From Escherichia coli (GTDB lineage Bacteria; Pseudomonadota; Gammaproteobacteria; Enterobacterales; Enterobacteriaceae): a DNA stretch of 64,000 nt. Below are positions 8,148 through 29,660 of this stretch, piece after piece. The DNA lies in NCBI RefSeq assembly GCF_048403405.1, contig NZ_CP183129.1; one strand, written 5' to 3'. The notes below the pieces were generated by a model. That model worked only from the letters and a program-made list of their open reading frames with translations. It was not told the DNA's origin and made no database searches. Within the stretch, counting starts at the first letter, position 1. Each line of letters begins with the position of its first letter. Position numbers and translations under genes: made by a program.

Positions 8148-8165
8148 GTATTGGGGTTATAAAAT

Positions 8166-11100
8166 TCAGCTGATACTGATGCCTGCGGTGGCTTTCTTCA
8201 TCACCACAACCAGCAAATCGCTGATACTTGCTGTGGGATACCAGTCATTTACCAGCCATGCTGACACCGAAAACTCCAGCGTCATGTGACCGTGACCGGC
8301 AGGCATATCAATAACGCCACTGTAAATCAGCGTATTATCCAGCGCGGTACGGTTATAAATTTCAGCACCGTTTTTCCGCACTATCAGACGGCATGAGGAG
8401 TAAATATCAGTATGCTCTCTCTCATGTTTAGCGCCGCTGAATGCCACCGCCGGAATAACAATCTGCCGGTCAAACGGCTGATCGTCATAAATCCTGACGG
8501 TAATGGTCCCTGATGGCCACCGTTCCGGTGCACGGGAGTCCCGGGGGAAAGCTTTGCCCACTGTTTTAACGAGATCGCCTTCAATCTGGTTCGCGGACAG
8601 TTTTCCCAGAACCCGGCAGTTCTCGTTAATCGTGACGTTGTTGAGCGTCCCGGAGTTCGCATTCACGTTACCGCTGATATCGGCATTTTTCGCCGTCAGC
8701 CGCCCGTCCGGTGTCAGGGAAAATGCCGGAGGATTACCGCCGCTGGTAATGGTGGGAGCCGTCAGATATTTCAGGAACACTTCATTCATAAATATCTGAT
8801 CGCCCTGACCAACAAACATCGGCTTTGTGTTGCCATTCGCAGGATTAACCATCGCAATCCTGTCCGCCGCCAGCAGCACCTGACTCTGCATACCGTCAGG
8901 AGTATTCTCAATACCGGCACCAATACCCGCGATATAAAGGCGTCCGTCCTGCATCTGCTGCAGCTTCACAGCCCACATGCTGTTCAGGTTATTATTTGTA
9001 TCAACCTGAACCTTCTGTATCTGCTGAATTACCGCACTCTGGTCTTCCAGTTTATTATTGACGGTCTGCGTGATTTCATTGCTGACATCCGTAATGGACG
9101 TCCTGATTTCAGCCAGGTCAGGCGCAAGCTGACCGTTATCAATCTGCGTCCACAGCTCCTGAGCCAGATGGCTTTTCCCTATCTCGCCTTTGAAAAAATC
9201 CAGATAGCCGGATGCATCATCACTCGGCTGGCCAACAGCCTCCACAAATGCCGATTTGCCAACGGTGTTCACACTGCGGATGTAAAAATAATAATCATGG
9301 CCCGGTTTGATATTGATACTGGTGGCTATCCAGTACAGCGCCGTGCCAAGATAGCGGGCTGTGGTTTCAACCTGCCTGATATCGGTAATCCGCGTTTCCG
9401 AGAACCAGAACTCAAACTGTACCGTCGGATCATAAACCGCAAGATGCGGCGTGGCAGTTATCTGAAAATAGCCCGGCGTCAGCTCAATCCGCGACGGCGC
9501 TGCCGGTGCGGCAATCCGGAACGATACCGATGCCGGATCGCCCTGCTGTCCCCACGCATTTACCGCCCGGACCGTCAGCGTGTAACGCCCCAGCGCCAGT
9601 TGCCTGAAGCGGTATGTGGTTTCCGTCGTCCTGGCCGTGCTGACCAGCCGCTCACTGCCGTCGTCCGCTGCCACGGTCAGGCGAAGCAGGAAGCTCACGC
9701 CCTTCACCACCTTCGGCGTGTCCCAGCGGGCCAGTACCTGATACTCCCCGCTGTCTGCGGTGACTTCGGCAGTCAGGTGCTGCACCGCTGGCGGCGTGAC
9801 ACCATTCACCGTGCCGCTCTGGTCACCGTCAAAGTGCGCCCCGTTATCCACGATGGCTTCTTTCTCCGGTACATGCTGCACGGCGGTGATGGCATACGTG
9901 CCATCGTCGTTCTCACGGATACTCACACAGCGGAACAGGCGCTGGCGCAGCGTCGGCAGCTTCAGCCCCCATACGCTGTATTCAGCAACACTGTCAGGAA
10001 CACGGCTCACTTTTACCTTCACGCCGTCGGTGACGGACTGAACCTCCACGCTGACCGGATTGCCACTTCCGTCAACCAGGCTTATCAGCGTGGTACCGGA
10101 GGATGGCAGCGTGATTTCACGGTCGAGCGTCAGCGTCCGGGTCTGGCTGTTCACCGCCAGTACACGACCACCGGTGCTGATACCGGCATAGTCATCATCA
10201 CAGATTTCAATAACATCGCCCGGTACATGGCGAAGCCCTTCTGCGCCGACGCTGAAATCCACGGTCTGCGTTTCCAGCAGTTCCGTTTTAATCAGCCACA
10301 GCCCGGCGCGGTGTGCCTGCCCCCGGCTGGTACAGCCAAAGGCATCCATCTTCGTGACGTTACGACCGTAACGGGCAATGGCCTGCGTGTCCTCCACAAG
10401 CTCTGTCGCCGTCTCCCAGCCGTTGTTCGGGTCAATCCAGTTCACCTCAACGGCATTATGGCGGTCCTTCAGGGCGCTGAAGCTGTAGCGGAACGGCGCG
10501 CCATCATCCGGCATCACCACATTACTGCGGTTATAGGTCCACACCTTATCCGACGGTCGGTCCTGCACGAATGTCAGCGTCTGCCCGTTCCATACCGGCA
10601 TACAGCGCATCGCCGAGCAGAAATCACTGAGCACATCCCACGCCTTGCGCTGTGTGGCCAGGTACGCATTACAGGTGATGCGCGGCTCCGTGCCGCCAAA
10701 ACCATCCGGCACCGACTGGTCGCAATACTGGCTGATGACATACAGCGCCCATTTATCCACATCTGCCGCACCAAGACGTTTCCCCATGCCGTAGCGCGGA
10801 TGGGTCAGCATATCCCACAGACACCAGGCCATGTTGTTGCTGTATGCTGGCTTAAACGTTCCGTCCCAGATACCGCTGTATTGCCGCGTCTGCGGGTTAT
10901 AGTTCGACGGCACCTGCAGAATGCGCCCGCGAAGATGATAATTACGGCTCACCTGCTGGCTGCCGAACTGCTCCGAATCCACCTGCACGCCGACCAGTGC
11001 CGTGTTCGGGTAGCACTGTTTCACATCGATGATTTCGGTGTATGACGACCAGAGCGTTTTGTTCTGCAGCTGGTCTGTGGTGCTGTCCGGCGTCATTCTG

Positions 11101-11645
11101 CGCATCCGGATATTAAACGGGCGCGGCGGCAGGTTATCCACCACCACCGAGGCCAGATACTGTGAGGTGGTTTTGCCCTTAATGGTGATGTCTTTTTCCG
11201 TCACCCAGCCACCATTACGCTGTATCTGAACCAGCAGGCGAACTTCCGACAGATTCCGGTCCCCCTTTGAGGTGGTTTCCACCAGTGCCTGCACACCGAA
11301 GGTAAAGCGCAGACGGTCGATGTTTGCAGACGTGATGGTCCGGGTAATCGGCGTGTCGTACTTCACTTCCGTACCCAGCACCGTCTCGGAGCCGGAGGAT
11401 TCAAATCCCTCCGGCGGTGTCTGCTCCTGCTCACCTGCCCGGAACACCACCGTGACACCGGAGATATTGGTATTCCCCTCACTGTCCAGCACTGGCGTAC
11501 TGTTCAGCAGCACACTTTTTAATCCGTCCACCGGACCTTCAACCGGCCCTTCACTGATGGCGTCTATCACGCTCAGCATCTGGGATGATTTCAGGTTGTC
11601 CTTCGCTTCGCGCGGGGTATGCCCCTTACTGCTGCCTTTACCCAT
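8166..11645 (-). CDS. J: Tail tip / host-specificity protein J
   Basis: 1159 aa. [20 protein letters not shown]... and the fibronectin-like repeats match lambda J. Confidence 0.95.
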
Positions 11646-11705
11646 TCGTCATGATCCATAAACGATAAAACCGCCCGGAGGCGGTTTCACATAAAACATT
11701 TTGCA

Positions 11706-12377
11706 TCAGCGACCAATCACCACAACCTGACCACCATCCCCTTCGTCTGCCGTGCTGATCTCCTGAGAAATCACGCGTGACCCCACGCGCATTTCACCGT
11801 ACAGAACGGGCAGAACATTCCCCTGGGCAACCATGTTATCCAGTGAGGAGAAATAGGTGTTCTGCTTACCGTTATCCGTTGTCTGTGTGCGGGGAGTTCT
11901 GGCTTTCGGTGCCAGCATCTGAGCCACACCACCGAGCACCATACTGGCACCGAGAGAAAACAGAATGCCGGTCATACCACCGGCACCAATGGCTGCCCCC
12001 CATGCTGCAAGGGTGGCTCCGGCGGTAAAGAATGATCCGGCAATGGCGGCTGCTCCCAGGACAATCTGGAATACACCACCTGACTTGGCCCCGGCGACTC
12101 TGGGAACAATATGAATCACAGCGCCATCAGGCAGAGTCTCATGTAACTGCGCCGTTAATCCGGACGTGCTGACGTCCCGCCCGGCAATCCGTACCTGATA
12201 CCAGCCGTCGCTCAGTTTCTGACGAAACGCCGGGAGCTGTGTGGCCAGTGCGCGGATGGCTTCAGCCCCCGTTTTCACACGAAGGTCGATGCGGCGGCCA
12301 AATCGTTGCAAATCCCCGTAAAGGCAGATGCGTGCCATTCCCGGTGACGCCAGAGGGAGTGTGTGCGTCGCTGCCAT
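11706..12377 (-). CDS. I: Tail tip assembly protein I
   Basis: 223 aa. MAATHTLPLASPGMARICLYGDLQRFGRR... matches remembered lambda I. Confidence 0.93.
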   Translation of the reverse strand: MAATHTLPLASPGMARICLYGDLQRFGRRIDLRVKTGAEAIRALATQLPAFRQKLSDGWYQVRIAGRDVSTSGLTAQLHETLPDGAVIHIVPRVAGAKSGGVFQIVLGAAAIAGSFFTAGATLAAWGAAIGAGGMTGILFSLGASMVLGGVAQMLAPKARTPRTQTTDNGKQNTYFSSLDNMVAQGNVLPVLYGEMRVGSRVISQEISTADEGDGGQVVVIGR

Positions 12378-13018
12378 TTGTCGGTATACCTCTCTCGTTT
12401 GCTCAGTTGTTCAGGAATATGGTGCAGCAGCTCGCCGTCACCACAGTAAATGGCGGCATGATTCGGCACCGATGAACCAAAGCAGCACAGCAGCACGTCG
12501 CCAGGCTGCGCCTCTGTCAGTGCGACACGGTAAAAACCAGTCGCCTCCATATTGTCAAGATAGAGATTCTGACCGTTACGCCACCAGTCATCCCCGCGAT
12601 GAAAATCCGGCATCTCAATCCCCGCCAGATGATAAGCATCCCGGAACAGCGTGTAACAGTCCGTCACCCCGTGCTCAAAGCGACGCCCGGTGAGATGCGG
12701 CACACAGCGGAACTTGTGAATCGCCCCCCGGCAGACCAGCCACCACGGCAAATCACTCTGCACCTGCAGCCGCCGGTCAGCCTCACTCAGCCAGGGCAGA
12801 CCACCGGGATGACTGTGGACCAGTGCCACAATCTCACCCTGCATCTCTGCCTGCAGCCAGTCCTCCGGAGCCATCCGGAAATAATCCTCCGGCTCACCGG
12901 AGATATTCACGCAGGGAAAATATCTTTCCCCCTCCGGCGTGCTTACCACGAAGCCGCACGACTCCGCTGGCGCACATCGCCGGGCGTGCGCCAGAATCGC
13001 TGATTCTGTCTCTGTCAT
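12275..13018 (-). CDS. K: Tail tip assembly protein K (JAB/MPN + NlpC/P60)
   Basis: The start is at the internal ATG 13018 (MTETESAILAHARRCAPAESCGF...), 5 nt after the L stop. It has an HSHPGG JAMM-like motif, ends ...AASTFV, and overlaps I by 103 nt. Confidence 0.88.
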   Translation of the reverse strand: MTETESAILAHARRCAPAESCGFVVSTPEGERYFPCVNISGEPEDYFRMAPEDWLQAEMQGEIVALVHSHPGGLPWLSEADRRLQVQSDLPWWLVCRGAIHKFRCVPHLTGRRFEHGVTDCYTLFRDAYHLAGIEMPDFHRGDDWWRNGQNLYLDNMEATGFYRVALTEAQPGDVLLCCFGSSVPNHAAIYCGDGELLHHIPEQLSKRERYTDKWQRRTHSLWRHREWHASAFTGICNDLAAASTFV

Positions 13019-13022
13019 GGGA

Positions 13023-13721
13023 TTACTGCGAAAGTTTGTTAATGGAAAGGAAGCCGCCAAAGTTGCCGACGTTATTGCGGAACTTACAGCCACTCAGGCA
13101 TTTGCTGCATTTATCCTTCGTGATATCGAACGTCGGCTGGTCATATTCATCCGCGACCGCCGGACCGCTATAACCGCACTCATCACCGCGATAGGTCCAG
13201 GTGCAGGTGTTGGCCAGCATGATGCGCCCCGGAAAAACAGCACCATCCGTTTCCGTCGGCGTGGACAACACAAAGGAGGCACTGACCGCGCTCAGTTCGC
13301 TGCACTGCTCGACGCGCCAGCGGCTGATCACCTCCTGCTCCGGATCGGCATCGCTGTTTCCGTTGACGAAATTCACCGCATCCAGAAAACGGGCGTAAAC
13401 CTTACGCCTGACCACCGTTCCGCCGACCAGACTCTGCAGATCTTCCACCATCCCGGTGACCATACCGTACAGGTTAGAAACCGTCAGCGTGGGGCGCGTA
13501 CTGGCGCCTTTGCCATTCAGTTCAAAACCGCTCCCCTGAATGGGATACGGCTGATACTGTCGCCCCTGCCAGGTGACCGGCTCACCTTTTTCGTTCTGCT
13601 CATTACAGAAAAAATAACGCTCTCCACCGACCTCTGTCAGATCGATTTCCCAGAGCACCACGCTGGCCGACTGCTCCGCACGGGTGCATTCATTCAGTGT
13701 TTCCTGTTGGATATCCTGCAT
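13023..13721 (-). CDS. L: Minor tail protein L
   Basis: 232 aa. MQDIQQETLNECTRAEQSASVVLWEIDL... is lambda L-like. Confidence 0.93.
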   Translation of the reverse strand: MQDIQQETLNECTRAEQSASVVLWEIDLTEVGGERYFFCNEQNEKGEPVTWQGRQYQPYPIQGSGFELNGKGASTRPTLTVSNLYGMVTGMVEDLQSLVGGTVVRRKVYARFLDAVNFVNGNSDADPEQEVISRWRVEQCSELSAVSASFVLSTPTETDGAVFPGRIMLANTCTWTYRGDECGYSGPAVADEYDQPTFDITKDKCSKCLSGCKFRNNVGNFGGFLSINKLSQ

Positions 13722-14050
13722 CAGTTCACCACCTGTTCAAACTCTGCGCTGAACTCAACACGCAACATACTGACCCGCGACGACCATTTTGCGCAGGTCA
13801 CCTTTATCTGCCGGTAGCCATAAGGCGGCGTCCACAGAAAGGCCTTCCAGCCCCCGTGCTCAGCCAGAAACGACTCCAGCGCCGCGGCCTCCCAACGGGG
13901 AACAGAAAGCGTCACGCTGTACGTTTTCAGGTCAGTGTTCAGCCCGGCAGGCGCTCGCTGGGAATAGCCATCACCAAAGCGCACCTTTCTTACGGAAGGG
14001 GCCGAAGCCACATCCATACCGGGTTTCACTTTCCAGCGGAAGGTTTTCAT
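13721..14050 (-). CDS. M: Minor tail protein M
   Basis: 109 aa, located between H and L, with overlapping start and stop codons as in lambda. Confidence 0.9.
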   Translation of the reverse strand: MKTFRWKVKPGMDVASAPSVRKVRFGDGYSQRAPAGLNTDLKTYSVTLSVPRWEAAALESFLAEHGGWKAFLWTPPYGYRQIKVTCAKWSSRVSMLRVEFSAEFEQVVN

Positions 14051-16608
14051 CGTCCACCTCCGGAGAACAGACCACCATCGCGCATCTGCCCGGTCACAAC
14101 ATCCATTGCCGCCTTACGGGCTACGTCATAAACAGCCTTCAGCGCCTGTGGCCCTATCTGACCGTTCGTGCCGTCGTTGTTAATCACCACATGGTTATTC
14201 TGCTCAAACGTCCCGGACGCCTGCGACCGGCTGTCCGCCATGCTGCCCGGTGTACCGACATAACCACCGGTGGCATAGCCGCGCATCAGCCGGTAGAGAT
14301 TCCCCACGCCAATCCGGCTGGTTGCCTCCTTCGTGAAGACAAATTCACCACGGTGAACAATCCCCGCAGGCTCATATTTGCCGCCGGTTCCCGTAAATCC
14401 CCCGGTCGCAAAATGGAATTTCGCCGCAGCTGCCTGAATGGCTGTACCGCCTGACGCTGATGCGTCACCACCGACAGCACCGCCAATGACACTGCCCACA
14501 CTCCCGACGATCCCCACCATTGCCTGCTTAAGCAGAATTTCTGTCATCATGGACAGCACGGAACGGGTGAAGCTGCGCCAGTTCTGCTCACTGCCGGTCA
14601 GCATCGCCGCCATATTCTGCGCAATACCATCAAAGGTCTGCGTGGCTGCACTTTTAACCTGCGACATACTGTCCGTGGCACTCTCTTTCCACTCGCTCCA
14701 GCCGGACCTGAGGCCTGCCATCCAGTTCCCGCGAAGCAGGTCTTCAGCCGCCCAGGTCTTTTTCTGCTCTGACATGACGTTATTCAGCGCCAGAGGATTA
14801 TCGCCATACTGTTCCTTCAGGCGCTGTTCTGTGGCTTCCCGTTCTGCCTGCCGGTCAGTCAGCCCCCGGCTTTTCGCATCAATGGCGGCCCGTTTTGCCC
14901 GTTGCTGCTGTGCGAATTTATCCGCCTGCTGCGCCAGCGCGTTCAGGCGCTCCTGATACGTAACCTTGTCGCCAAGTGCAGCAAGCTGGCGTTTGTACTC
15001 CAGCGTCTCATCTTTATGCGCCAGCAGGGATTTCTCCTGTGCAGACAGCTGGCGACGTTGCGCCGCCTCCTCCAGTACCGCGAACTGACTCTCCGCCTTC
15101 CACAAATCCCGGCGCTGCTGGCTGATTTTCTCATTTGCTCCGGCATGCTTCTCCAGCGTCCGGAGTTCTGCCTGAAGCGTCAGCAGGGCAGCATGAGCAC
15201 TGTCTTCCTGACGATCGCCCGCAGACACCTTCACGCCGGACTGTTTCGGCTTTTTCAGCGTCGCTTCATAATCCTTTTTCGCCGCCGCCATCAGCGTGTT
15301 GTAATCCGCCTGCAGGATTTTCCCGTCTTTCAGTGCCTTGTTCAGTTCTTCCTGACGGGCGGTATATTTCTCCAGCGGCGTCTGCAGCCGTTCGTAAGCC
15401 TTCTGCGCCTCTTCGGTATATTTCAGCCGTGACGCTTCGGTATCGCTCTGCTGCTGCGCATTTTTGTCCTGTTGAGTCTGCTGCTCAGCCTTCTTTCGGG
15501 CGGCTTCAAGCGCAAGACGGGCCTTTTCACGATCATCCCAGTAACGCGCCCGCGCTTCATCGTTAACAAAATAATCATCCTTGCGCAGATTCCAGATGTC
15601 GTCTGCTTTCTTAAACGCAGCCTCTGCCTTAATCAGCATCTCCTGCGCGGTATCAGGACGACCAATATCCAGCACCGCATCCCACATGGATTTGAATGCC
15701 CGCGCAGTCCTGTCTGCCCAGGTCTCCAGCGTGCCCATGTTCTCTTTCAGGCGGCGGGTCTGGTCATCAAACCCTTTCGTTGCGGCCTCGTTCGCCGCCT
15801 GCAATGCCCCGGCTTCATCGCCGGAACGCTGCAACTGAGCAACATACGCAATCTGCTCCGCCGTCACGTTATGGAACTGGCGTGCCATCGCCGTCAGCCC
15901 CGACGTCGGGTCTGTGGTCAGCTTCCCGAAGGCTTCAGCGACCTTGTCCACCTCCACGCCGGATGCAGAGGAGAAACGCGCCACACTCTGGCTGATGGAC
16001 GCAATCTGAGCCTCACCGCTTACCCCCGCCTTAACCAGTGCGCTGAGTGACTCGCTGGTCTGGTTAAACGTCAGCCCTGCCGCCTGCCCGGCTCTGGACA
16101 GGACCAGCATACGATCTGCCGTCAGTCCCGCCTGATTGCCGGAAAGGACCAGCGTTTTGTTGAAATCGGACAGGGTTGAGTTGCCCTGATACCAGGCATA
16201 CGCCAGTGCACCGGTCGCCACCGCCAGCGAGGTGGCCCCCACCATCGGCAGGGTGATCGCACCGGCAAGCCCCCTGAACATGGGGATCATCCCGCCGAAG
16301 GAGTCCTTCACCTGCCCCCCCTGTTGCAGCAGGATGAGCCACGGATTCTGCCCCCCTGCAAGCTGCGTGGCCACGTCGGTGAACTGTGCAGGCAGCATAC
16401 GCATGGCGGCTTTATACTGCCCGACGGAAATCCCCGCTTTCTGTGCAGCCAGCGCCTGTCGGCTCAGCGACTGTTCAACGACTGCCGCTGTTTTTTTCGC
16501 ATCACTTTCCGTACCGGAAAAATGACGCCTGACTCTGGCCATCTGCTCGTCAAATCTGGCCGCATCCAGACTCAAATCAACGACCAGATCGCCTACCGGT
16601 TCAGCCAT
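14047..16608 (-). CDS. H: Tail tape-measure protein H
   Basis: 853 aa, the same length as lambda H. It is a long coiled-coil protein with Gly-rich hydrophobic segments. Confidence 0.93.
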   Translation of the reverse strand: MAEPVGDLVVDLSLDAARFDEQMARVRRHFSGTESDAKKTAAVVEQSLSRQALAAQKAGISVGQYKAAMRMLPAQFTDVATQLAGGQNPWLILLQQGGQVKDSFGGMIPMFRGLAGAITLPMVGATSLAVATGALAYAWYQGNSTLSDFNKTLVLSGNQAGLTADRMLVLSRAGQAAGLTFNQTSESLSALVKAGVSGEAQIASISQSVARFSSASGVEVDKVAEAFGKLTTDPTSGLTAMARQFHNVTAEQIAYVAQLQRSGDEAGALQAANEAATKGFDDQTRRLKENMGTLETWADRTARAFKSMWDAVLDIGRPDTAQEMLIKAEAAFKKADDIWNLRKDDYFVNDEARARYWDDREKARLALEAARKKAEQQTQQDKNAQQQSDTEASRLKYTEEAQKAYERLQTPLEKYTARQEELNKALKDGKILQADYNTLMAAAKKDYEATLKKPKQSGVKVSAGDRQEDSAHAALLTLQAELRTLEKHAGANEKISQQRRDLWKAESQFAVLEEAAQRRQLSAQEKSLLAHKDETLEYKRQLAALGDKVTYQERLNALAQQADKFAQQQRAKRAAIDAKSRGLTDRQAEREATEQRLKEQYGDNPLALNNVMSEQKKTWAAEDLLRGNWMAGLRSGWSEWKESATDSMSQVKSAATQTFDGIAQNMAAMLTGSEQNWRSFTRSVLSMMTEILLKQAMVGIVGSVGSVIGGAVGGDASASGGTAIQAAAAKFHFATGGFTGTGGKYEPAGIVHRGEFVFTKEATSRIGVGNLYRLMRGYATGGYVGTPGSMADSRSQASGTFEQNNHVVINNDGTNGQIGPQALKAVYDVARKAAMDVVTGQMRDGGLFSGGGR

Positions 16609-17439
16609 ACCGGACTCCTCCTGCGATCCCTTCTGATACTGTCATCAGCATTACGTCATCCTCCGTCATGTCCGCCACATCCGGGGAAGCGGAGATAACT
16701 TCATTCCCGTCCGGGCCAAAGCGGACACCTCCGGCAAGCCCTGCCGCTTTCTGCATCAGCACATCATCTTCAGGCTCTTCGTCAGCCTCGCGCCGGTTCA
16801 GCAGACTGAAATCCAGCGGATGCATATCCGGATCGCTGAAAAACAGGCTGAGCACGGTGTACGTCAGCCCGGAAAAGTGCATATCCAGCAGAACATCATG
16901 AAAATAATGGGTACTGTAAAAACGGTGCCAGTCGGCATACTCCGTGGATGACATCCCGGCAAGCATGGCACGCCAGTCGGGTCGCCCCATCTCACGCGCC
17001 AGTTTCAGGGCAAAACTCAGCTCACCGTCGAACACTTTCCCGCAGAAACAGGCTCTGCGGGCCCGGCGTCCTCTGTCTGTTCAGGGGCATTATTCACAAC
17101 AAACTCATACATACCGGACAGCCGGTACACCACGTTTTCAGCATGAGAAATTGCCTCTGTAGGCCAGGTGGTAAGCACTTCCTGCTCAATCTGTTTAACG
17201 GCTTCATTCATGGAAGGCATCTGCGTCTTCTGCGGATGGTTATGCCACAGGGACATCGCTACCACAAAAGCACCGGTTCTGATGGCGTCTTCCACAGTAA
17301 ACTTCCGGTTGCTGTCTGACTCCGCCTGTTCTGCCTGCCGTTTCATCAGGGCGAGATGCTCAATACGCTGCAGGGCTGACAGTTCAGAAAGCGTGACGGT
17401 CACACCGTTATGTTCAAATGATTCGGTTTTCAGGAACAT
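16601..17439 (-). CDS. T: Tail assembly chaperone G-T (-1 programmed frameshift fusion)
   Basis: The T-frame ORF 16601-17035 overlaps the end of G. The slippery heptamer G GGA AAG lies at the junction. Confidence 0.85.
17017..17439 (-). CDS. G: Tail assembly chaperone G
   Basis: 140 aa. MFLKTESFEHNGVTVTLSELSALQRIEHLALMKRQ... matches remembered lambda G. Confidence 0.93.
   Translation of the reverse strand: MFLKTESFEHNGVTVTLSELSALQRIEHLALMKRQAEQAESDSNRKFTVEDAIRTGAFVVAMSLWHNHPQKTQMPSMNEAVKQIEQEVLTTWPTEAISHAENVVYRLSGMYEFVVNNAPEQTEDAGPAEPVSAGKCSTVS
17035..17041 (-). promoter_or_regulatory. G/G-T -1 frameshift slippery site GGGAAAG
   Basis: The plus strand reads ctttccc, so the minus strand reads GGGAAAG. 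This is the same heptamer as in lambda. Confidence 0.85.
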
Positions 17440-17454
17440 CTCTGACTCTCCGGA

Positions 17455-18195
17455 TTAACTGGCGGTGACGGTGATTTCTGCAACCGCAGCAAACTCACCA
17501 TTACCGGATACGACCGGAATGTTGACCTTACCTGCAGCAACGCCATTCACGGTGATGGTCATACCACTGACCGACACGGTGGCTTTTGTTTTATCCGCTG
17601 ACACCGCACGGAAGCTCTTGTCGGTTGCGCCTTCCGGCTGGAATGCCACGGTCAGCGTGGTGCTCTTCCCTTTCACTACGGAAGCGCTGGCTGGCGTCAC
17701 GGTCATACCGGTTGCCGCTGTTACCGTGCTGCGTTCTTCTGCCATCGACGGACGTCCCACATTGGTGACTTTCACCGTGCGGGTGATCACTTCCTTCGCC
17801 GTCACCGCCTTACCGATACTGCTGACCCAGCCACGGAACACATCGACCGTGCCGTTCGGGAAGCGGATTTTATAGGCACGGGTATCGCCTTCATTAAACC
17901 ACGCCAGCAGCGCCTGCTGCCCCTGCTCTCCGGGCATCCACGCCAGCGTGAAGCTGGTATCTCCGGCAGATTTCTGCCCCTGCCCGGTCGCGGTCCAGTC
18001 TGCATCTTCATCATCGAGATAGCTGTCGTCATAGGACTCAGCGGTCAGTTCGCCGGGCGTCAGGTCTTTAACTTTAGCCAGACGCGACCAGTCAACGTCT
18101 GAAAGCGGGTTCGCATAAGGGTCACCGTTCCCCTTATAAACCCACAGGGTGGTCCCGGCCCCTTTCACCGGCATTACTGGATTTGGTACAGGCAT
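17455..18195 (-). CDS. V: Major tail protein V (with C-terminal Ig-like domain)
   Basis: 246 aa. [22 protein letters not shown]... is lambda V-like. A GAGGA RBS is retained between the ATG and the IS1 end. Confidence 0.93.
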
Positions 18196-18203
18196 ATCGT
18201 CCT

Positions 18204-18212
18204 CACATTTCA
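18204..18212. repeat. IS1 target-site duplication, left copy
   Basis: CACATTTCA immediately abuts the IS1 end and is identical to 18981-18989. Confidence 0.9.
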
Positions 18213-18267
18213 GGTGATGCTGCCAACTTACTGATTTAGTGTATGATGGTGTTTTTGAGGTGCTCCA

Positions 18268-18543
18268 GTGGCTTCTGTTTCTATCAGCTGTCCCTCCTGT
18301 TCAGCTACTGACGGGGTGGTGCGTAACGGCAAAAGCACCGCCGGACATCAGCGCTATCTCTGCTCTCACTGCCGTAAAACATGGCAACTGCAGTTCACTT
18401 ACACCGCTTCTCAACCCGGTACGCACCAGAAAATCATTGATATGGCCATGAATGGCGTTGGATGCCGGGCAACCGCCCGCATTATGGGCGTTGGCCTCAA
18501 CACGATTTTCCGCCATTTAAAAAACTCAGGCCGCAGTCGGTAA
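18268..18543 (+). CDS. insA: IS1 InsA
   Basis: 91 aa. [40 protein letters not shown]... is the canonical InsA sequence. Confidence 0.95.
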
Positions 18544-18965
18544 CCTCGCGCATACAGCCGGGCAGTGACGTCATCGTCTGCGCGGAAATGGACGAACAGT
18601 GGGGATACGTCGGGGCTAAATCGCGCCAGCGCTGGCTGTTTTACGCGTATGACAGGCTCCGGAAGACGGTTGTTGCGCACGTATTCGGTGAACGCACTCT
18701 GGCCACACTGGAGCGTCTTCTAAGCCTGCTGTCGGCCTTTGAGGTCGTGGTATGGATGACGGATGGCTGGCCGCTGTATGAATCCCGCCTGAAGGGAAAG
18801 CTGCACGTAATCAGCAAGCGTTACACTCAGCGAATTGAGCGGCATAACCTGAATCTGAGACAACATCTGGCAAGGCTGGGACGGAAGTCACTGTCGTTCT
18901 CAAAATCGGTGGAGCTGCATGACAAGGTCATCGGGCATTATCTGAACATAAAACACTATCAGTAA
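18462..18965 (+). CDS. insB: IS1 InsB frame (expressed as the InsAB' transposase by a -1 frameshift at A6C, 18519-18525)
   Basis: 167-aa ORF in the -1 frame relative to insA. The AAAAAAC slippery run lies in the overlap. Confidence 0.9.
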
Positions 18966-19375
18966 GTTGGAGTCATTACCCACATTTCATAGGTAATGAC
19001 ATAAGTCAGATCGGCTGAACTCCACAGGCCCGCATCATCGTCGCGCCGGTAGTCATAGCCGCTGGCCACCATACTGGTGATCAAATCTGACAGTGCCGGG
19101 ATATCACTCATCACCGGATAAATCCGGGACTCCATCCACTCATCCAGCTCTGAATCCGGCACCTGAGCAGGCAGGAAAACTTCGATATGCAGCTCCGCCT
19201 GCCAGGTATCGCTGTCCAGCTCTTCGCCCGTGTATTCAGCGCCGGTGAGATAAACGGCAACTGCCGGAAAATCCGCCTCATCAAAAACAGCGGGGCGACC
19301 ATCAAAAAACGTCGCCCCGGTGTCATGCTTCTCCAGTGCATCCAGTACGGCTGCACGGAGTTCAGTATGTTTCAT
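18959..19375 (-). CDS. U: Tail terminator protein U, C-terminally extended by 7 IS1-encoded residues
   Basis: [37 protein letters not shown]...[10 protein letters not shown] matches the 131-aa lambda U. Here the reading frame continues as WVMTPTY into the IS1 end because the insertion split the TGA stop. Confidence 0.88.
18981..18989. repeat. IS1 target-site duplication, right copy
   Basis: CACATTTCA directly follows the IS1 end. Confidence 0.9.
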
Positions 19376-19950
19376 CGCTTTATTACCATTCTCAGTTGAT
19401 GCTGCAGCGCATAGCCCAGCTCTTTCGGAAGACGCTCACGCCGTATCCGCTCAATATTTTGTTTAAACGCCGTGGTCAGCGGCACCGCCATCGGGATTTT
19501 CACTACATCAATGGGGTAACGGTTTTTCCCGGCCACACGCTGCATGACATGCCAGCGGCCATTTTTCAGTTGCTGAATAAACGCGCCGGGAATACGACGG
19601 TTTCCCACCACAAGCACGCTGCCGCCACCTTTCAGGGCTGAACGCTGCCCCTTTTTACGACGCCTGCGTCGGGACAGGACAATCCGCGCGTTACCCAGCT
19701 TGATTACGGGCAAATCCCCCCGGTTAACCTTGATTCTGGCCTGCGGATTTTTAACCGTAGCCCTTTTCAGCCTGGCCCTTTCCTTTACCAGTTTCCGGCG
19801 TACCTTTGTCTCACGGGCAACCTGTGACGCCGACTGCGATATCGCGGATGAAGCAACGCGGTTAATGGCCATTGCGGCGGCACCAGGCACCGCCGTTTTG
19901 CTGATACGGCTGAGGTTTTCAACGGCCTGCTCAAGACCTTTTATGGCCAT
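19372..19950 (-). CDS. Z: Tail completion protein Z
   Basis: 192 aa. MAIKGLEQAVENLSRISKTAVPGAAAMAINRVASS... is lambda Z-like. Confidence 0.92.
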   Translation of the reverse strand: MAIKGLEQAVENLSRISKTAVPGAAAMAINRVASSAISQSASQVARETKVRRKLVKERARLKRATVKNPQARIKVNRGDLPVIKLGNARIVLSRRRRRKKGQRSALKGGGSVLVVGNRRIPGAFIQQLKNGRWHVMQRVAGKNRYPIDVVKIPMAVPLTTAFKQNIERIRRERLPKELGYALQHQLRMVIKR

Positions 19951-19961
19951 ACATCCCCCTT

Positions 19962-20315
19962 TCAGCGGCGACGGTTAACGGCAGGCGGTACGCCCCGCCC
20001 AAGCCAGAGATGACAGCTTCCGCCATCATCCGGCGAAACACGATCTATCCAGAAGTTTTCCTCACCGATGGTCAGCGTGTCTCCACGCCGCAGTTGCCGC
20101 ACATCATCAGTCCGGACAAACAGGGACGGGCTGGAGCCTTCAACGCGCACGCCCTGTCCGGCATAGCTGATATTTTCAGGGTCATCAAAAACACCACGTA
20201 TCACAGCACCGGACTGCTCACCGGATGTCATGGTGGCTGACGTTCCCATGTACCCGCGTATCGTTTCATCAGCGCGGGCAATGGCAGCATCGAACAGGTT
20301 ATCGAAATCAGCCAC
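19962..20315 (-). CDS. FII: Head-tail joining protein FII
   Basis: 117 aa. MADFDNLFDAAIARADETIRGYMGTSA... is lambda FII-like. Confidence 0.92.
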   Translation of the reverse strand: MADFDNLFDAAIARADETIRGYMGTSATMTSGEQSGAVIRGVFDDPENISYAGQGVRVEGSSPSLFVRTDDVRQLRRGDTLTIGEENFWIDRVSPDDGGSCHLWLGRGVPPAVNRRR

Positions 20316-20326
20316 AGCGCCTCCCG

Positions 20327-20725
20327 TTATTGCATTCTGGCCAGGCCACGTTCTGTCATTTCGGCTGCCACACCGGCAGAGACACGAAACGCCGTTCCCG
20401 GCAGCACAAATGCCACAGGTTTATCCCGCGTGGCGTGAAGTGCATCAGTATGCAGCGTCACCAGTGCCACGACCGTGACCAGTTCAGCCGTATCCTGAAT
20501 CACGGTATCCGGCTGCGCTGATACAGCCTCATTTTCATGCCCGGTCAGCACATTTTCCGGGCTGAGAGGGGTGTCCTGACCGGCAGTGTCACCCGTGTCA
20601 TCAAGCTCTTCTTCCAGCTCTGCCACACGGAGCGCCAGTTCTTCTTTCGTCCCCGTCAGGCTGACATCACGGTTCAGTTGTTCACCCAGCGAGCGGAGAC
20701 GGGCAATCAGTTCATCTTTCGTCAT
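20327..20725 (-). CDS. FI: DNA packaging / head completion protein FI
   Basis: The start is at internal ATG 20725 (MTKDELIARLRSLGEQLNRDVSLTGTKEELA...), giving 132 aa as in lambda. Confidence 0.9.
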   Translation of the reverse strand: MTKDELIARLRSLGEQLNRDVSLTGTKEELALRVAELEEELDDTGDTAGQDTPLSPENVLTGHENEAVSAQPDTVIQDTAELVTVVALVTLHTDALHATRDKPVAFVLPGTAFRVSAGVAAEMTERGLARMQ

Positions 20726-20766
20726 GGACTTCTCCACAGAGAGACAATGGCCCCGAAGGGCCATGA

Positions 20767-21792
20767 TTACGCCAGTTGTACGGACACGAACTCATCAGGA
20801 TCAGCCAGCAGCATCAGCGGTGCTGACTGAATCATGGTGAACTCACGCGCCGGATCGCCGGTGGTCACCCAGTTTTTCGGGTAACGGGCAGAGGCGTTAA
20901 TGCCTTCGCGCTGTGCGTCCGCATCCTGAATGCAGCCATAGGTGCGCAGACCGCGAGCCTGAGTGTTCCCCAGCACCATCGTGTTGTCCGGCAGGAAGTT
21001 CTTTTTGACGCCGTTTTCCACGTACTGTCCGGAATACACGACGATGGCCACATCGCCATACATTCCCTTATAGGACACCGCTTTGCCCAGGTCTTTTACC
21101 GCTGTCTCCAGCTCGGAATGAGAGCCGCGACGGGTATCCAGCTTCTCCTTGACGGCTTTGAAGGAACGGAACAGCGCCCAGCCTTTCGGGTCAAACACGA
21201 TGATATTCACCACACCGCTGGCGTTCAGCGCGTAGGCTTCGATATCGTCGGTCGGGTCATACGTGGACTTGTCACGCTTGCTCCACTCCGTGCCGCCGGA
21301 CTGCGTGATGTTATTCGCCTCACTGCGGCCCATATCCACCTCAACCGGATCGAAGGCTTCACCGGTCATGGTATATTTGCCCTTAAGCACGGCAGAAACT
21401 GCCTGCATCTCTTCGACCTGGGCAATCGCCAGATTTTCATCCAGCATATTCTGCCGAATAATACGGCGACGACGGTAAGCCGGGTCAGCCAGGTTCTGCG
21501 GATCTTCATCCGGCAGGCGACGCAGGGTCATCTGCGGATTCACCTCATGCTTGGGTTTGACATAACCCGGCGTAAATTCAGAGGTGGAGCCGCCACGGGA
21601 TCGGATAACCTCACCGGAAACAATCGGCGAAACGTACAGCGCCATGTTTACCAGTCCCGGAATTTGTGAGAGATAGACTTTTTCCGTGGTGAAAGGATAG
21701 GTTTCACGGAAAAACAGGCGCAGAAACAGCGGATCGAACTTAAAGTGATGCTGGGTCGATGCCAGTAATTCTGCAGTTGTATATACAGACAT
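20767..21792 (-). CDS. E: Major capsid protein E
   Basis: 341 aa. ...FKFDPLFLRLFFRE.YPFTTEKVYLSQIPGLVNMALYVSPIVSGEV... is lambda E-like. Confidence 0.95.
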   Translation of the reverse strand: MSVYTTAELLASTQHHFKFDPLFLRLFFRETYPFTTEKVYLSQIPGLVNMALYVSPIVSGEVIRSRGGSTSEFTPGYVKPKHEVNPQMTLRRLPDEDPQNLADPAYRRRRIIRQNMLDENLAIAQVEEMQAVSAVLKGKYTMTGEAFDPVEVDMGRSEANNITQSGGTEWSKRDKSTYDPTDDIEAYALNASGVVNIIVFDPKGWALFRSFKAVKEKLDTRRGSHSELETAVKDLGKAVSYKGMYGDVAIVVYSGQYVENGVKKNFLPDNTMVLGNTQARGLRTYGCIQDADAQREGINASARYPKNWVTTGDPAREFTMIQSAPLMLLADPDEFVSVQLA

Positions 21793-21847
21793 AAATTATT
21801 TCCATAAAAAAAGCCGCACAGGCGGCCTTTGTTGATGAAGGGGAAGA

Positions 21848-22180
21848 TTAAACGATGCTGATTGCCGTTCCGGCAAACGCGGTCCGTTTTTTCGTCTCGT
21901 CGCTGGCAGCCTCCGGCCAGAGCACATCCTCATAACGGAACGTGCCGGACTTGTAGAACGTCAGTGTGGTGCTGGTCTGGTCAACAGCAACCGCCAGAAT
22001 GCCAACGGCTGCACCGTCGGTGGTGCCATCCCACACAACCAGCTTACGGGTAGTGCCATCCAGCATCAGTGGGGTCATTGCAGGCGTTTTCGCACTCAAT
22101 CCGCCAGGCGCAATTGCTGTATGAGCCGGATCACTGTTACCCAGCGGCTGGTAATGGTTAAACTCTTCTTTTGTCGCCAT
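21848..22180 (-). CDS. D: Head decoration protein D
   Basis: 110 aa. ...[30 protein letters not shown]...[11 protein letters not shown] is lambda D-like. Confidence 0.93.
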
Positions 22181-22189
22181 AACTGCCTC

Positions 22190-22807
22190 TTATACCGGTA
22201 AAGCTTCAGGTGTATTAAGTAATTCTTTATTGGTATCAGATGCCAGGTTACCTGCAGCCAGCGGTGCCGCTGCACCCTGCATCAGACGATCCAGCGCAGT
22301 GTCACTGCGCGCCTGTGCACTCTGTGGTGCTGCGGCCAGAATGCGGCGGGCCGTTTCCACGGTCATTCCGGGGGTTTCTGCCAGAACGCGCGCCTGTTCT
22401 TCGCGTCCGTGAGCCTCCTCACAGTTGAGGATCCCCATAATGCGGCTGTTTTCTGCCGCAACCGCTGCGGTGATCTGTGCGTTCACATCCGGCTGCGCCG
22501 CGCTGGCGTTTTCGCCCTCCTTCGCAGGCTCCACGGTGGTGATGTCAGCCTGCGAAGCAGTGGCTGAAACAGTTGTTGATTGAGTCTCTTTGGTCATTCG
22601 CCCTCCTGAGAGACGGGATTTACGTGCATCCAGTGCATCACGCATGACGGTGATCGCATCGGTGCTGTTAACAAGTTCATCAGCCAGTCCGGCATCAATG
22701 GCCTCCTGACCGCTGTACACTGCAGCCTCGGTATCCAGCACAGCCTGCACAGACAGGCCGGTATATGCCGACACCTTCTGCGCAAACATCTGGCGGGTTG
22801 CATCCAT
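22190..22807 (-). CDS. Nu3: Scaffold protein Nu3 (in-frame internal start within C)
   Basis: The internal ATG at 22807 (MDATRQMFAQKV...) is at the same relative position as lambda Nu3 (residue 239 of C). Confidence 0.7.
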   Translation of the reverse strand: MDATRQMFAQKVSAYTGLSVQAVLDTEAAVYSGQEAIDAGLADELVNSTDAITVMRDALDARKSRLSGGRMTKETQSTTVSATASQADITTVEPAKEGENASAAQPDVNAQITAAVAAENSRIMGILNCEEAHGREEQARVLAETPGMTVETARRILAAAPQSAQARSDTALDRLMQGAAAPLAAGNLASDTNKELLNTPEALPV

Positions 22808-23501
22808 CCGGGACTGCAGTGTTTCCCGGACGTCATCCGGAAGATGGCTGTAGGGGTTGCCATCCACCTTATGGCTGCCGCTGTAAATCAGCGTGATTTC
22901 CACGCCCTGTTTCTCCAGCGCAGCACCGTAATTGCTGTGAGCCATCATGACGCCGATGGAGCCTGTCCGGGCGGTCTGCGTGACCAGGCGCCGGGAAGCG
23001 GCACTGGCAAGCAACTGACCTGCACTGCAGTTCATGTCGTTGGCAAGCGCCCATACCGGTTTTATGTCACGCACACGGGCGATGATGTCAGCGCAGTCAA
23101 ATGCCCCCGCCACCATCCCGCCGGGCGTGTCCATATCGAGCAGAATGCCGTCCACCATCGGATCGCTGGCAGCCTGTTGCAGACGGGCGATAATGCCGTT
23201 GTAACCGGTCATCCCCGAATACGGCTGCAGCGCCCGCGTCCGGCTGACCAGCGTGCCGGAAACCGGCAGCACGGCGATGCCGTTCATGACCTGATAACTG
23301 CGGGCCTGTCGTGGCCCGCCATCATCACCGGATAACGCCAGCGTCGCGGGTGCCTCTCCGGCAGCCAAGCTGTCACCGGACACCGCATCCGTCAGGCGGC
23401 TGATCCCAAGCTGACCTGCAAGTGCACAAAAGAAAACCCGCGCATAGGCGGGTTCAAGCATCAGCGGCTCATTAAAGGCCATGCTGGCAATATGCGGGAG
23501 A

Positions 23502-23521
<20 letters not shown>
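22190..23521 (-). CDS. C: Head maturation protease C (S49/ClpP-like)
   Basis: The GTG start at 23521 gives (M)TAELRNLPHIASMAFNEPLMLEPAYARVFF..., as in lambda C. The longer track ORF is an upstream extension that overlaps B. Confidence 0.88.
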
Positions 23522-27202
<3,681 letters not shown>

Positions 27203-27228
<26 letters not shown>

Positions 27229-27748
27229 TCAGCAACCCCGGTATCAGTTCATCCAGCGCGGCTGCTTTGTTCATGGCTTTGATGATATCCCGTTTCAGGA
27301 AATCAACATGTCGGTTTTCCAGTTCCGGAAAACGCCGCTGCACCGACAGGGGGATCCCGTCGAGAATACTGGCAATTTCACCTGCGATCCGCGACAGCAC
27401 GAAAGTACAGAATGCGGTTTCCACCACTTCAGCGGAGTCTCTGGCATTTTTCAGCTCCTGTGCGTCGGCCTGCGCACGCGTAAGTCGATGGCGTTCGTAC
27501 TCAATAGTCCCTGGCTGGAGATCTGTCTCGCTGGCCTGCCGCAGTTCTTCAACTTCCCGGCGCAGCTTTTCGTTCTCAATTTCAGCATCCCTTTCGGCAT
27601 ACCATTTTATGACGGCGGCAGAGTCATAAAGCACCTCATTACCCTTGCCACCGCCTCGCAGAACGGGCATTCCCTGTTCCTGCCAGTTCTGAATGGTACG
27701 GATACTCGCACCGAAAATGTCAGCCAGCTGCTTTTTGTTGACTTCCAT
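27203..27748 (-). CDS. Nu1: Terminase small subunit Nu1
   Basis: 181 aa. MEVNKKQLADIFGASIRTIQNWQEQGMPV... is lambda Nu1. Confidence 0.95.
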
Positions 27749-27749: not shown

Positions 27750-27960
27750 GTTCATTCCACGGACAAAAACAGAGAAAGGAAACGACAGAGGCCAAAAAGC
27801 TCGCTTTCAGCACCTGTCGTTTCCTTTCTTTTCAGAGGGTATTTTAAATAAAAACATTAAGTTATGACGAAGAAGAACGGAAACGCCTTAAACCGGAAAA
27901 TTTTCATAAATAGCGAAAACCCGCGAGGTCGCCGCCCCGTAACCTGTCGGATCGCCGGAA
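27750..27960 (-). other. cos region; the cosN 12-nt cohesive-end sequence is at 27926-27937
   Basis: The minus strand reads ...CCGACAGGTTACG|GGGCGGCGACCT|CGCGGGTTTTCGCTATTTATGAAAATTTTCCGG.... This is the remembered lambda right end, cohesive end and left end (cosB) sequence, just upstream of Nu1. Confidence 0.9.
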
Positions 27961-28136
27961 AGGACCCGAAAAATGATAATAATTATCATCTACATATCAC
28001 AACGTGCGTGTACGCCATCAAACCACGTCAAATAATCAATTATGACGCAGGTATCGTATTAATTGATCCGCATCAACTTAACGTAAAAACAACTTCAGAC
28101 AATACAAATCAGCAACACAGAATACGGGACAACCTC

Positions 28137-28331
28137 ATGTCAACGAAGAACAGAACCCGCAGAACAACAACCCGCAACATCCGCTTTCCTAACCAAATGA
28201 TTGAACAAATTAACATCGCTCTTGATCAAAAAGGGTCCGGGAATTTCTCAGCCTGGGTCATTGAAGCCTGCCGTCGGAGACTAACGTCAGAAAAGAGAGC
28301 ATATACATCAATCAAAAGTGATGAAGAATGA
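28137..28331 (+). CDS. Small ribbon-helix-helix-like protein (homologue of the lambda right-end ORF; YlcI/YnfO-like)
   Basis: The internal ATG 28137 gives MSTKNRTRRTTTRNIRFPNQMIEQINIALDQKGSGNFSAWVIEACRRRL.... The 5' part of the 155-aa track ORF crosses cosN and is rejected. Confidence 0.6.
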   Translation: MSTKNRTRRTTTRNIRFPNQMIEQINIALDQKGSGNFSAWVIEACRRRLTSEKRAYTSIKSDEE

Positions 28332-28581
28332 ATATCCCGGTTTCTTTACCTCCCCTCCCACCCCGCACAGGACTGGCGAGCGTGTGGGACAAATATGTGA
28401 GTCATAAACGCCTTATCCTCAGAAATGCAGTTGGCATCCGAACAGGACGATATTGTAAATTCACCTAATTACGAGGCATTGCAGTAGTTGAATTGTAGTT
28501 CTGTATTAGCCTGACAGTGACAGAATGCGATATTGACTCTGTCACAGGTGAAATAGTTTGAATGGTTAGCAGTTATGGTGA

Positions 28582-28788
28582 TCAGTCAACCACCAAGGAA
28601 TAATCCTTCGAATTCTTATCGTGCTTCACCAACGCTGCCTCAATTGCCCTGAATGCTTCCAGAGACACTTGATGTTCTATACATGCAATTACAACATCCG
28701 GGTAACCCATCGAAATGGTGCTATTAAGCATAGTTTTTACACGAATCTGCTCCTGGGAGGGGGCATCAGTGTATTGATCTTTATGCAT
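28582..28788 (-). CDS. Hypothetical protein conserved at the lambda right end
   Basis: 68 aa. ...[49 protein letters not shown] matches an ORF I remember from the lambda right arm. Confidence 0.6.
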
Positions 28789-29083
28789 TTTGTCGCTCCA
28801 TGCGTTTGCTCTTCACTTGCGGCTAAAAATATAACGTCAAATCACTCAGCATGAAAGAGTGAAAGTTTCAGCGCGTTTCCCTTACATAATCTGTCATTTG
28901 TATTCTCTTCAGGCATACCGGAAAGACTAGGTATTGTCACACAACCAATACCATCGACAATCGAGATTTATATCTATTCGGTAATGTTTAAATATAACAA
29001 AACCCCGTAAAAACGAGGTTTATGGGTAATTTGTATTGTTGAATAGCATCTGATGAGAAATTGATGCTAATACTATAAACATA

Positions 29084-29257
29084 CTAGATTAAATCAATCT
29101 TGATATCATAGCTTTCAAGACCAGTCATTTTTTCCCGTGCAGTAAACTGGATACTGGTAACTTCTTTCCCGGTCTTTTTCTTAAGCTCAATGATTTTTTT
29201 TGTTATATATTCAGAAATATCTGCTTCTGTTTTTGTTTTTAACTCTTCAATGTTCAT
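29084..29257 (-). CDS. GnsA/GnsB-family protein
   Basis: The internal ATG gives a 57-aa product. MNIEELKTKTEADISEYITKKIIELKKKTGKEVTSIQFTAREKMTGLESYDIKIDLI resembles remembered GnsB. Confidence 0.8.
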   Translation of the reverse strand: MNIEELKTKTEADISEYITKKIIELKKKTGKEVTSIQFTAREKMTGLESYDIKIDLI

Positions 29258-29429
29258 CATTTCCTCTTTTAGTCTGTTATGACTTTCCTGGTACACAGTA
29301 GTGTCAATTATATGGAGCAAACGTATAAAAGATAAGATGAAACATCGCAATAATCAACATACGACGGTCTAAATTTCACACAAACAGATAAAGATGATTA
29401 TCATTTATTATCAATGCATTAGAATCAAA

Positions 29430-29660
29430 TCAATTCAAGAGTCTCATTGCTGCTTCCAGAATTTCTTCTGAAGTTACATGTCGATCCGCTGCTACATAAA
29501 TGACTTTATGATCTCCGGTCAGAGATGGAAACCCTGCAGCCATTACAGTGAGGTGTGTTGTTTCGCCATTTGGATATTCACGCATGATGGTGTTAACTCC
29601 GGTCATCACTGGCACTACCATTGCTGGTTCAGAGTTAAAAAAAACTATTATTTTTTTCAT
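29430..29660 (-). CDS. YnfN-family cold-shock-induced protein (longer N-terminus than K-12 YnfN)
   Basis: The C-terminal 51 aa, MREYPNGETTHLTVMAAGFPSLTGDHKVIYVAADRHVTSEEILEAAMRLLN, match remembered YnfN. The ATG at 29660 (MKKIIVFF...) gives 76 aa. Confidence 0.7.
   Translation of the reverse strand: MKKIIVFFNSEPAMVVPVMTGVNTIMREYPNGETTHLTVMAAGFPSLTGDHKVIYVAADRHVTSEEILEAAMRLLN

Follow-up and report, generated by a model that had tools for sequence, protein, structure and literature searches.

What becomes of a lambda-type prophage when an insertion sequence (IS) lands in the middle of its late operon? This question is raised by a stretch of 64,000 nucleotides of Escherichia coli DNA (contig NZ_CP183129.1 of RefSeq assembly GCF_048403405.1; hereafter the window), which carries a prophage whose tail terminator gene U and major tail tube gene V are parted by a copy of the element IS1. 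The account that we consider very probable is that a single, recent transposition placed IS1 on the stop codon of U, that polymerase modified by the late antiterminator Q of the prophage would largely read through the element, and that the insertion belongs to a process of prophage decay, visible in sibling genomes as large deletions that begin at the end of IS1.

An IS1 copy on the stop codon of U

The interrupted U–V junction consists of the following features, in which IRL and IRR are the left and right inverted repeats of IS1, ORF is open reading frame, RBS is ribosome-binding site, and PGAP is the Prokaryotic Genome Annotation Pipeline.

17455–18195, − strand: major tail tube V, 246 aa, 97.6% identical to lambda V; start codon and RBS intact
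18196–18958, − strand: untranslated late-transcript stretch of 763 nt, IS1 antisense, rich in C over G, separating the new stop of U from the start of V
18204–18212: left copy of the target duplication, CACATTTCA; its first base (G on the − strand) belongs to the V Shine-Dalgarno GAGGA, 18204–18200
18213–18980, + strand: complete IS1, 768 bp, delimited by terminal repeats and flanking duplication; annotated by PGAP in genome TUM1226 as "IS1 family transposase, programmed frameshift"
18213–18235, + strand: IRL, GGTGATGCTGCCAACTTACTGAT; holds IS1's own inward promoter-like site, 18220–18247
18268–18543, + strand: insA, intact ORF for InsA, 91 aa
18462–18965, + strand: insB frame, antiparallel to the late operon
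18517–18527, + strand: −1 programmed frameshift motif (A6C), TTAAAAAACTC, which yields InsAB′
18958–18980, + strand: IRR, reverse complement GGTAATGACTCCAACTTACTGAT; on the − strand it provides U with seven additional codons and a replacement TGA
18959–19375, − strand: tail terminator U with an IS-encoded C-terminal extension, 138 aa (native 131 plus WVMTPTY); WP_200968074.1 in the TUM1226 annotation
18981–18989: right copy of the target duplication, CACATTTCA; covers GAA ATG, the final codons of U, plus the initial TG of its native TGA

The element is an IS1, as every defining feature that can be checked in a sequence is present. IRL and IRR match at 19 of 23 positions and are of the IS1 type, in which the repeats begin GGTGATG/GGTAATG; the −1 frameshift joins insA and insB into an InsAB′ fusion of 232 aa without an internal stop; and the genes of an identical element in another assembly carry precomputed matches to PF03400, PF03811, and PF12759 (DDE_Tnp_IS1, Zn_ribbon_InsA, and HTH_Tnp_IS1). 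With K-12 IS1A it shares the 768-bp length, the imperfect repeats of ∼23 bp, the A6C frameshift, the 232-aa InsAB′, and the 9-bp duplication, but it is a distinct isoform, with a nucleotide identity of 96.4% to IS1A (28 differences) and 92.7% to IS1F (56 differences). The 9-mer CACATTTCA occurs twice on the + strand of the whole window, both times exactly and both times flanking IS1, and a chance match of a 9-bp repeat at a fixed position has p ∼4e-6. An earlier, sequence-only reading of this locus had described a complete 768-bp IS1 with a 9-bp duplication, oriented against the late transcript. Both statements hold: the repeats are exact, the length and the terminal inverted repeats are those of IS1, and insA and insB lie on the + strand, whereas the late operon lies on the − strand.

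When IS1 and one repeat are removed in silico, the late strand reads ACCTATGAAATGTGAGGACGATATGCCT, that is, the codons ACC TAT GAA ATG, the stop TGA, the spacer GGACGAT, and the start ATG CCT. The restored junction thus comprises the U stop, the V Shine-Dalgarno, and the V start, with V beginning seven bases after U, and the restored U is a protein of 131 aa that is 99.2% identical to lambda U. In the occupied allele, the native TGA of U is split and a replacement TGA sits within IRR. This reconstruction reproduces two further claims made from the letters of the window, namely, that excision of IS1 would give back the natural U stop together with the RBS and start of V, and that the split TGA lets U read on for the seven residues WVMTPTY, the 138-aa product ending inside IRR. 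All factual points of that reading are thereby confirmed. Translational coupling between U and V, possibly by termination-reinitiation, may have been lost through the insertion.

IS1 is a multicopy element at which short-read assemblies break—contig BRRU01000120, for instance, stops at the IS—and the copy in the window could in principle have been created by repeat collapse or misplacement during assembly or scaffolding. However, the 9-bp duplication is exact, both junctions are found in the independent long-contig assemblies TUM1226, BNIT01000001, and BNIR01000001, and the V-side junction is found in MS 69-1 and OX030728 as well. Because the occupied site recurs in TUM1226 and at least four other assemblies, the insertion is not an artefact of this assembly, and we regard that explanation as effectively refuted.

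Distribution and age of the insertion

We surveyed 5,426 complete E. coli genomes for the two IS1 junctions and for the uninterrupted site. The V|IS1 junction is present in three of them (TUM1226, MS 69-1, and the isolate OX030728) and the IS1|U junction in TUM1226 only, compared to 3,503 genomes that carry the uninterrupted lambda-type U|V junction in ∼5,170 copies. The occupied site is also found in assemblies GCA_015472125, GCA_015472085, and GCA_026009815, and U with its seven additional residues, used as a marker protein, turns up on five contigs in the broader set of public assemblies, among them a short-read contig that breaks at the IS. In GCA_015472125, the Z gene next to the interrupted U is broken into two ORFs (86 and 81 aa; positions 2425–3004 of that locus), through a real second lesion or else through an indel error of long-read sequencing.

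The sequence-only reading proposed a comparison with siblings that lack IS1, and such siblings exist: in YDC107, OU701452, and 097H6 the site is empty, 100% identical, and exactly 777 bp shorter, with a single copy of the 9-bp sequence in YDC107. All compared loci—empty, inserted, and deleted (see below)—occupy the same prfC-yjjG chromosomal site. Since the window shows 0 differences from YDC107 over positions 18981–39700 (20.7 kb) and 0 differences from MS 69-1 over positions 1–18981, the insertion must be recent, and since the occupied copies have identical junctions and lie at the same chromosomal locus, they go back to a single insertion event. We considered the possibility that the U|V junction is a hotspot for IS1 and rejected it, as the occupied copies form one lineage with identical junctions at the same locus. 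The suggestion of a recent single hit is therefore well founded, given the perfect duplication, the 100% identical flanks over 20.7 kb, and a junction present in 3 of the 5,426 genomes.

Two differences among these relatives lie away from the insertion. The window differs from TUM1226 by 262 substitutions, all of them within positions 3000–15500 (side-fibre genes, lom, J, and H) with identity elsewhere, which suggests that the host-range module was replaced by recombination between prophages. In the chromosomal flank of MS 69-1, 12 of the 15 differences from the window cluster at ∼52500, near a tRNA-Leu triplet and yjjZ, and form a small variable patch in a flank that is nearly identical elsewhere.

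IS1-anchored deletions in sibling genomes

Two of the genomes with the V|IS1 junction no longer have the U side, and their deletion endpoints fall in two genes at the far end of the prophage.

41604–41804, − strand: cro-like (YdaS-family) gene; the OX030728 deletion endpoint is exactly 41604
47603–48826, − strand: tyrosine integrase (int); the MS 69-1 deletion endpoint, 48019, falls inside

In OX030728, the last base of IRR (18980) is joined to window position 41604, at the end of the cro-like gene, a deletion of 22.6 kb; in MS 69-1, the same base is joined to position 48019, inside int, a deletion of 29 kb. Neither remnant retains U, any head gene, cos, the lysis genes, Q, or the replication genes, and in MS 69-1 part of int is gone too. 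The stretch from V to stf is still there, with 0 mismatches in one remnant and 11 in the other over 18.9 kb. Read from their endpoints, these are two independent, one-sided deletions, each anchored on the IS1 at U|V. Such a signature is expected either from IS1-mediated adjacent deletion or from recombination with a transient second copy, the product being the same either way; it fits the class that dominates among IS-mediated deletions in E. coli mutation-accumulation lines, in which an existing copy is joined to a new one (PMC5009759). That both deletions begin at the very last base of the element also suggests, indirectly, that this IS1 is active in transposition. Taken together, the empty, inserted, and deleted states would form a decay series of insertion followed by deletion, with the window as its intermediate. 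The sequence-only reading had the structure right, but from the letters of the window it could not reveal this IS1-anchored loss of most of the prophage, which is the main consequence in relatives.

The same remnants could be read in another way, namely, as products of a host-selected domestication in which the insertion and the deletions disarmed a lethal prophage while keeping V–J and the fibres, on the way to a headless, F-type tailocin-like element. Three observations fit this idea: the nearly unchanged V-through-stf block, the fact that the remnants start exactly at V, like the structural clusters of F-type pyocins, which have no terminator (bioRxiv 10.1101/2021.02.16.431561), and the co-orientation of the MS 69-1 remnant with the host genes holD, rimI, and yjjG. 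Yet a one-sided IS deletion keeps one flank by mechanism alone, so the retention of this flank is not evidence of selection, and the near-zero divergence leaves too little time for purifying selection to become visible. Moreover, Q, holin, lysozyme, and the late promoter have been lost from the remnants, and a search for an outward promoter at the IS1 end facing V found none, the only promoter-like site being IS1's own inward one. F-type pyocin clusters, which lack the tail terminator, carry a regulator or antiterminator and lysis genes (bioRxiv 10.1101/2021.02.16.431561); neither in MS 69-1 nor in OX030728 does the V-to-J-like cluster have its own regulator or antiterminator and a lysis cassette beside it. 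We therefore consider domestication very unlikely. Scarcely more can be said for the broader idea that the window shows the first step by which a lambda-like prophage naturally turns into a tailocin-like element, which strikes us as highly improbable; in a less radical variant, an IS1-bearing phage that is still infectious would spread IS1 between hosts. Decay by IS1-anchored deletion remains the reading that we prefer.

Transcription of the tail genes across IS1

The central functional question is whether the genes behind IS1 can still be expressed, and it brings in the antiterminator of the prophage.

34532–35284, − strand: late antiterminator Q, 250 aa, lambda-Q family

The earlier reading suspected a tail defect through polarity or a dependence on Q-mediated read-through. 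In the strong form of this idea, IS1 is so polar on V-G-T-H-M-L-K-I-J that induction gives DNA-filled heads without tails. IS1 is classically polar in both orientations, and several features of the locus point in this direction. The insertion leaves 763 nt of untranslated RNA, C exceeds G in 63% of the 78-nt windows of the IS1 antisense RNA compared to 17% in the rest of the late operon, and Rho loading on this untranslated, C-rich RNA is plausible from its composition; the late strand within IS1 also bears one weak hairpin followed by a T-tract (18353–18339), and the coupling of U and V would be gone. Against this stands the finding that terminator-like sites on that strand are no more numerous than in shuffled sequence, and we found no convincing intrinsic terminator on the late strand within IS1. 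The V RBS is intact, with its GAGGA-ATG arrangement kept, and its predicted accessibility is unchanged (0.38 with and 0.30 without IS1).

The strongest argument against severe polarity comes from Q. Lambda-type late operons are transcribed only by a Q-modified, termination-resistant RNA polymerase, and the prophage encodes a Q of the same family (PF03589, E = 3.8e-53), which is 34% identical to lambda Q over its full length. The Q-modified polymerase resists both intrinsic and Rho-dependent terminators, and a passage of PMC12360218 that cites Forbes & Herskowitz 1982 names lambda Q as a proven polarity suppressor; the complex containing Q82 is shielded from Rho in vitro (PMC12360218). By its homology to lambda Q, the prophage Q may be inferred to suppress Rho-dependent polarity in the same manner, and partial rather than absolute polarity would be expected. 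The proposed tail defect through polarity thus keeps its basis in the untranslated C-rich RNA and is weakened by Q antitermination, the lack of a convincing terminator, and the unchanged V RBS, and we judge strong polarity to be unlikely. The alternative of a dependence on Q read-through falls away, because the whole late operon is Q-dependent to begin with and the insertion adds no new dependency. A literature search on IS1 insertions in lambda-type late operons returned nothing specific.

The C terminus of U

The second possible source of a defect is U itself. In the lambda virion, gpU is ordered over its full 131 residues (PMC10721106), and 106 of 108 cluster representatives of the U family (67–98% identity, from many enterobacterial genera) end at the same aligned position. 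In the structurally homologous terminator of phage T5, the C terminus lies in the subunit interface, and a C-terminal His tag, but not an N-terminal one, leads to aberrant polymerization (PMC11784142). The gpU entries in the PDB are uninformative on C-terminal tags, since 1Z1Z is untagged and 3FZ2 and 3FZB carry three extra N-terminal residues. By analogy with these systems, a hydrophobic tail of seven residues on U would explain a defect no less plausibly than polarity, and of the two it may be the graver lesion. The sequence-only reading had recognized the extension WVMTPTY but underrated its weight as a lesion of the tail terminator.

It is also conceivable that the insertion has no functional effect at all, that infectious virions still form, and that IS1 is carried as cargo. 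No gene has been physically destroyed, the genome of 48.2 kb with IS1 is about as long as that of lambda (48.5 kb), Q antitermination applies, the V RBS is intact, and phage P1 provides a precedent, as it carries an IS1 with nonessential insA and insB (PMC10695390). Co-resident lambda-like U genes could, in addition, complement in trans, as the example of YDC107 illustrates: its chromosome (CP025712) has three lambda-type U|V junctions, and the strain also harbours an N15-like linear-plasmid prophage whose own U and V are lambda-like, so that complementation in trans or recombinational repair of the IS1 lesion is conceivable in this lineage. What speaks against a silent insertion is the near-invariant C-terminal length of U, a native C terminus that is ordered in the virion, and the disruption of the T5 homologue by a C-terminal tag. 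None of the 50,697 records of a phage collection has IS1 at the U|V position, and in two descendants most of the prophage has disappeared with no obvious hindrance. We therefore find functional silence doubtful.

In the same context, we examined the 46.7-kb contig YDC107_phage1, reported as excised (PMC6035167), as a candidate for the IS1-free form of the prophage, and rejected it: it is an N15-like protelomerase phage (Ravinvirus). Since it is a different phage, it provides no evidence that the empty-site prophage is active.

Course of events and points that weigh against it

The preferred account can be put as a sequence of steps. A putatively active IS1 isoform would have transposed once, recently, into the 9-bp target TGAAATGTG, which comprises the last codons and the stop of U, in an E. 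coli lineage related to TUM1226, MS 69-1, and YDC107. The insertion is a simple transposition with a 9-bp duplication, and it leaves every phage gene physically intact, but it replaces the U stop by seven IS-encoded residues, parts U and V by 763 nt of untranslated IS1 antisense RNA, and equips the centre of the late operon with a putatively active transposase and a portable repeat. On induction, the Q-modified polymerase would read through most of IS1, V–J would be transcribed, perhaps at a reduced level, and V would initiate from its own unchanged RBS. As V–J would still be transcribed and the V RBS is unchanged, the likeliest cause of a loss of infectivity would be the extended U, lower V–J expression, or both, and absolute polarity is a less likely cause than these. 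The lasting effect, as the siblings show, is evolutionary: IS1 has anchored two independent one-sided deletions that turned a complete prophage into a tail-gene remnant.

Five points weigh against this account. (i) Instead of intramolecular transposition, homologous recombination with another, short-lived IS1 copy could have produced the deletions in the siblings. (ii) Polarity could be stronger than assumed, considering the untranslated RNA with its excess of C over G, the classical polarity of IS1, and a Q that is only 34% identical to that of lambda. (iii) The analogy with T5 rests on similarity of fold and not of sequence. (iv) The order of events was reconstructed by parsimony and from the intact duplication rather than from a tree of whole genomes. 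(v) The phenotype of the insertion is entirely inferred.

Prophage setting and completeness

The prophage spans positions ∼864–49056, is 48.2 kb long including IS1, and sits in the 5′ end of prfC, a placement based on K-12, where yjjG and prfC adjoin. A search for exact att repeats of at least 12 bp found none; the att sites emerged instead from an alignment against K-12.

822–863: att copy in the 5′ end of prfC, prophage boundary
8166–17439, − strand: tail genes G, T, H, M, L, K, I, and J, downstream of IS1; G-T slippery site GGGAAAG at 17035
19372–27748, − strand: Nu1, A, W, B, C/Nu3, D, E, FI, FII, and Z, upstream of IS1; all full length
27926–27937, − strand: cosN, GGGCGGCGACCT, identical to that of lambda
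49057–49098: second att copy, adjoining int; 34 of 42 positions match the first, with a 14-bp exact core, GGGTGAGAAATAAT

The prophage also supplies a replacement N-terminal coding end for prfC.

The head-tail module is of the lambda type, with a collinear series from Nu1 to J at 83–100% amino acid identity, cos, and the G-T frameshift site. From Nu1 to I, the genes have the order and the full lengths of their lambda counterparts, at 89–100% amino acid identity, which bears out the earlier statement that the other morphogenetic ORFs are of normal length for Nu1, A, W, B, D, E, FI, FII, Z, V, G, T, H, M, L, K, and I. J (8166–11645, − strand) has 1159 aa compared to 1132 aa in lambda, that is, 27 aa more, and is 82.7% identical; the siblings share this natural variant, which is no lesion. 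In addition to Q, int, and the cro-like gene, the nonstructural half encodes an S24-type repressor, a CII-like protein, a replication initiator, a lysozyme, a DUF2514 protein, and, according to the PGAP annotation, a class II holin; 91% of the length of this half aligns with the isolated temperate phage 2H10, at 98.2% identity. Judged by sequence, IS1 is thus the only obvious lesion of the prophage.

The late region holds Qin-type morons at ∼28100–30400 and ∼32400–34300 (cspB, cspF, cspI, ymcF, ynfN, a GnsA/GnsB-family gene, ynfU, and ylcI), located between Q and the holin gene and between the Rz-like gene and Nu1, as well as a truncated gene of the YdfR family. With several such foreign inserts in place, the late transcript must cross foreign DNA even without IS1. 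The lom gene is only 44% identical to lambda lom, and the divergence of J and lom suggests that receptor specificity probably differs from that of lambda. Past the side-fibre genes lies a Pin/Gin-like serine invertase gene (PF00239 plus a helix-turn-helix domain; 2574–3164, + strand), adjoined by a fragment of 36 residues (3265–3372) that matches the C terminus of lambda Tfa. This arrangement suggests an invertible tail-fibre segment, active or decayed; inverted repeats of at least 20 bp were sought near the invertase gene, in 2300–8200, and none was found.

Relation to known systems and significance

The phenomenon as such is ordinary, a recent IS1 insertion at the outset of prophage decay. 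An IS in a prophage, polarity and its suppression by antiterminators, and IS-anchored deletion have long been established, IS insertion followed by IS-anchored deletion is the textbook route to the cryptic prophages of E. coli, and no new principle is involved; PGAP already annotates both IS1 and the 138-aa U in TUM1226. Three comparisons help to place the locus. Compared to lambda, the Nu1–J module has the same gene order and lengths and the same cosN and G-T slippery site, whereas J and the lom/side-fibre region diverge, the early, immunity, and lysis regions are 2H10-like with Qin-type morons, and the integration site is prfC instead of attB-lambda. With the classical polar IS insertions (IS1 and IS2 in gal and lac, and insertions in lambda relieved by N or Q), the locus has in common an IS between cistrons and a long untranslated segment that may recruit Rho; antiterminated polymerase is known to suppress polarity in those cases (PMC12360218), and the operon here is of the same type. 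Unlike those mutants, however, this is a natural prophage in clinical isolates, with the element on a stop codon and the upstream protein altered. Finally, cases of IS-mediated prophage decay such as the CP4-6 IS1A-IS1A deletion and the loss of the IS-flanked CP4-44 in K-12 show that an IS within a prophage can likewise anchor large deletions (PMC5009759); what sets the present locus apart is that three stages are kept at one chromosomal site in close relatives, which has rarely been documented for a single element.

The value of the locus therefore lies in an unusually clean natural series, in which the empty site, an insertion with an intact duplication, and two deletion derivatives are found in near-identical genomes. 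It offers a ready system for measuring how far a Q-type antiterminator suppresses IS1 polarity in its native late operon, and it allows the tolerance of the lambda tail terminator for a C-terminal extension to be tested. For E. coli itself, the insertion provides a lineage marker for a clinical clade.

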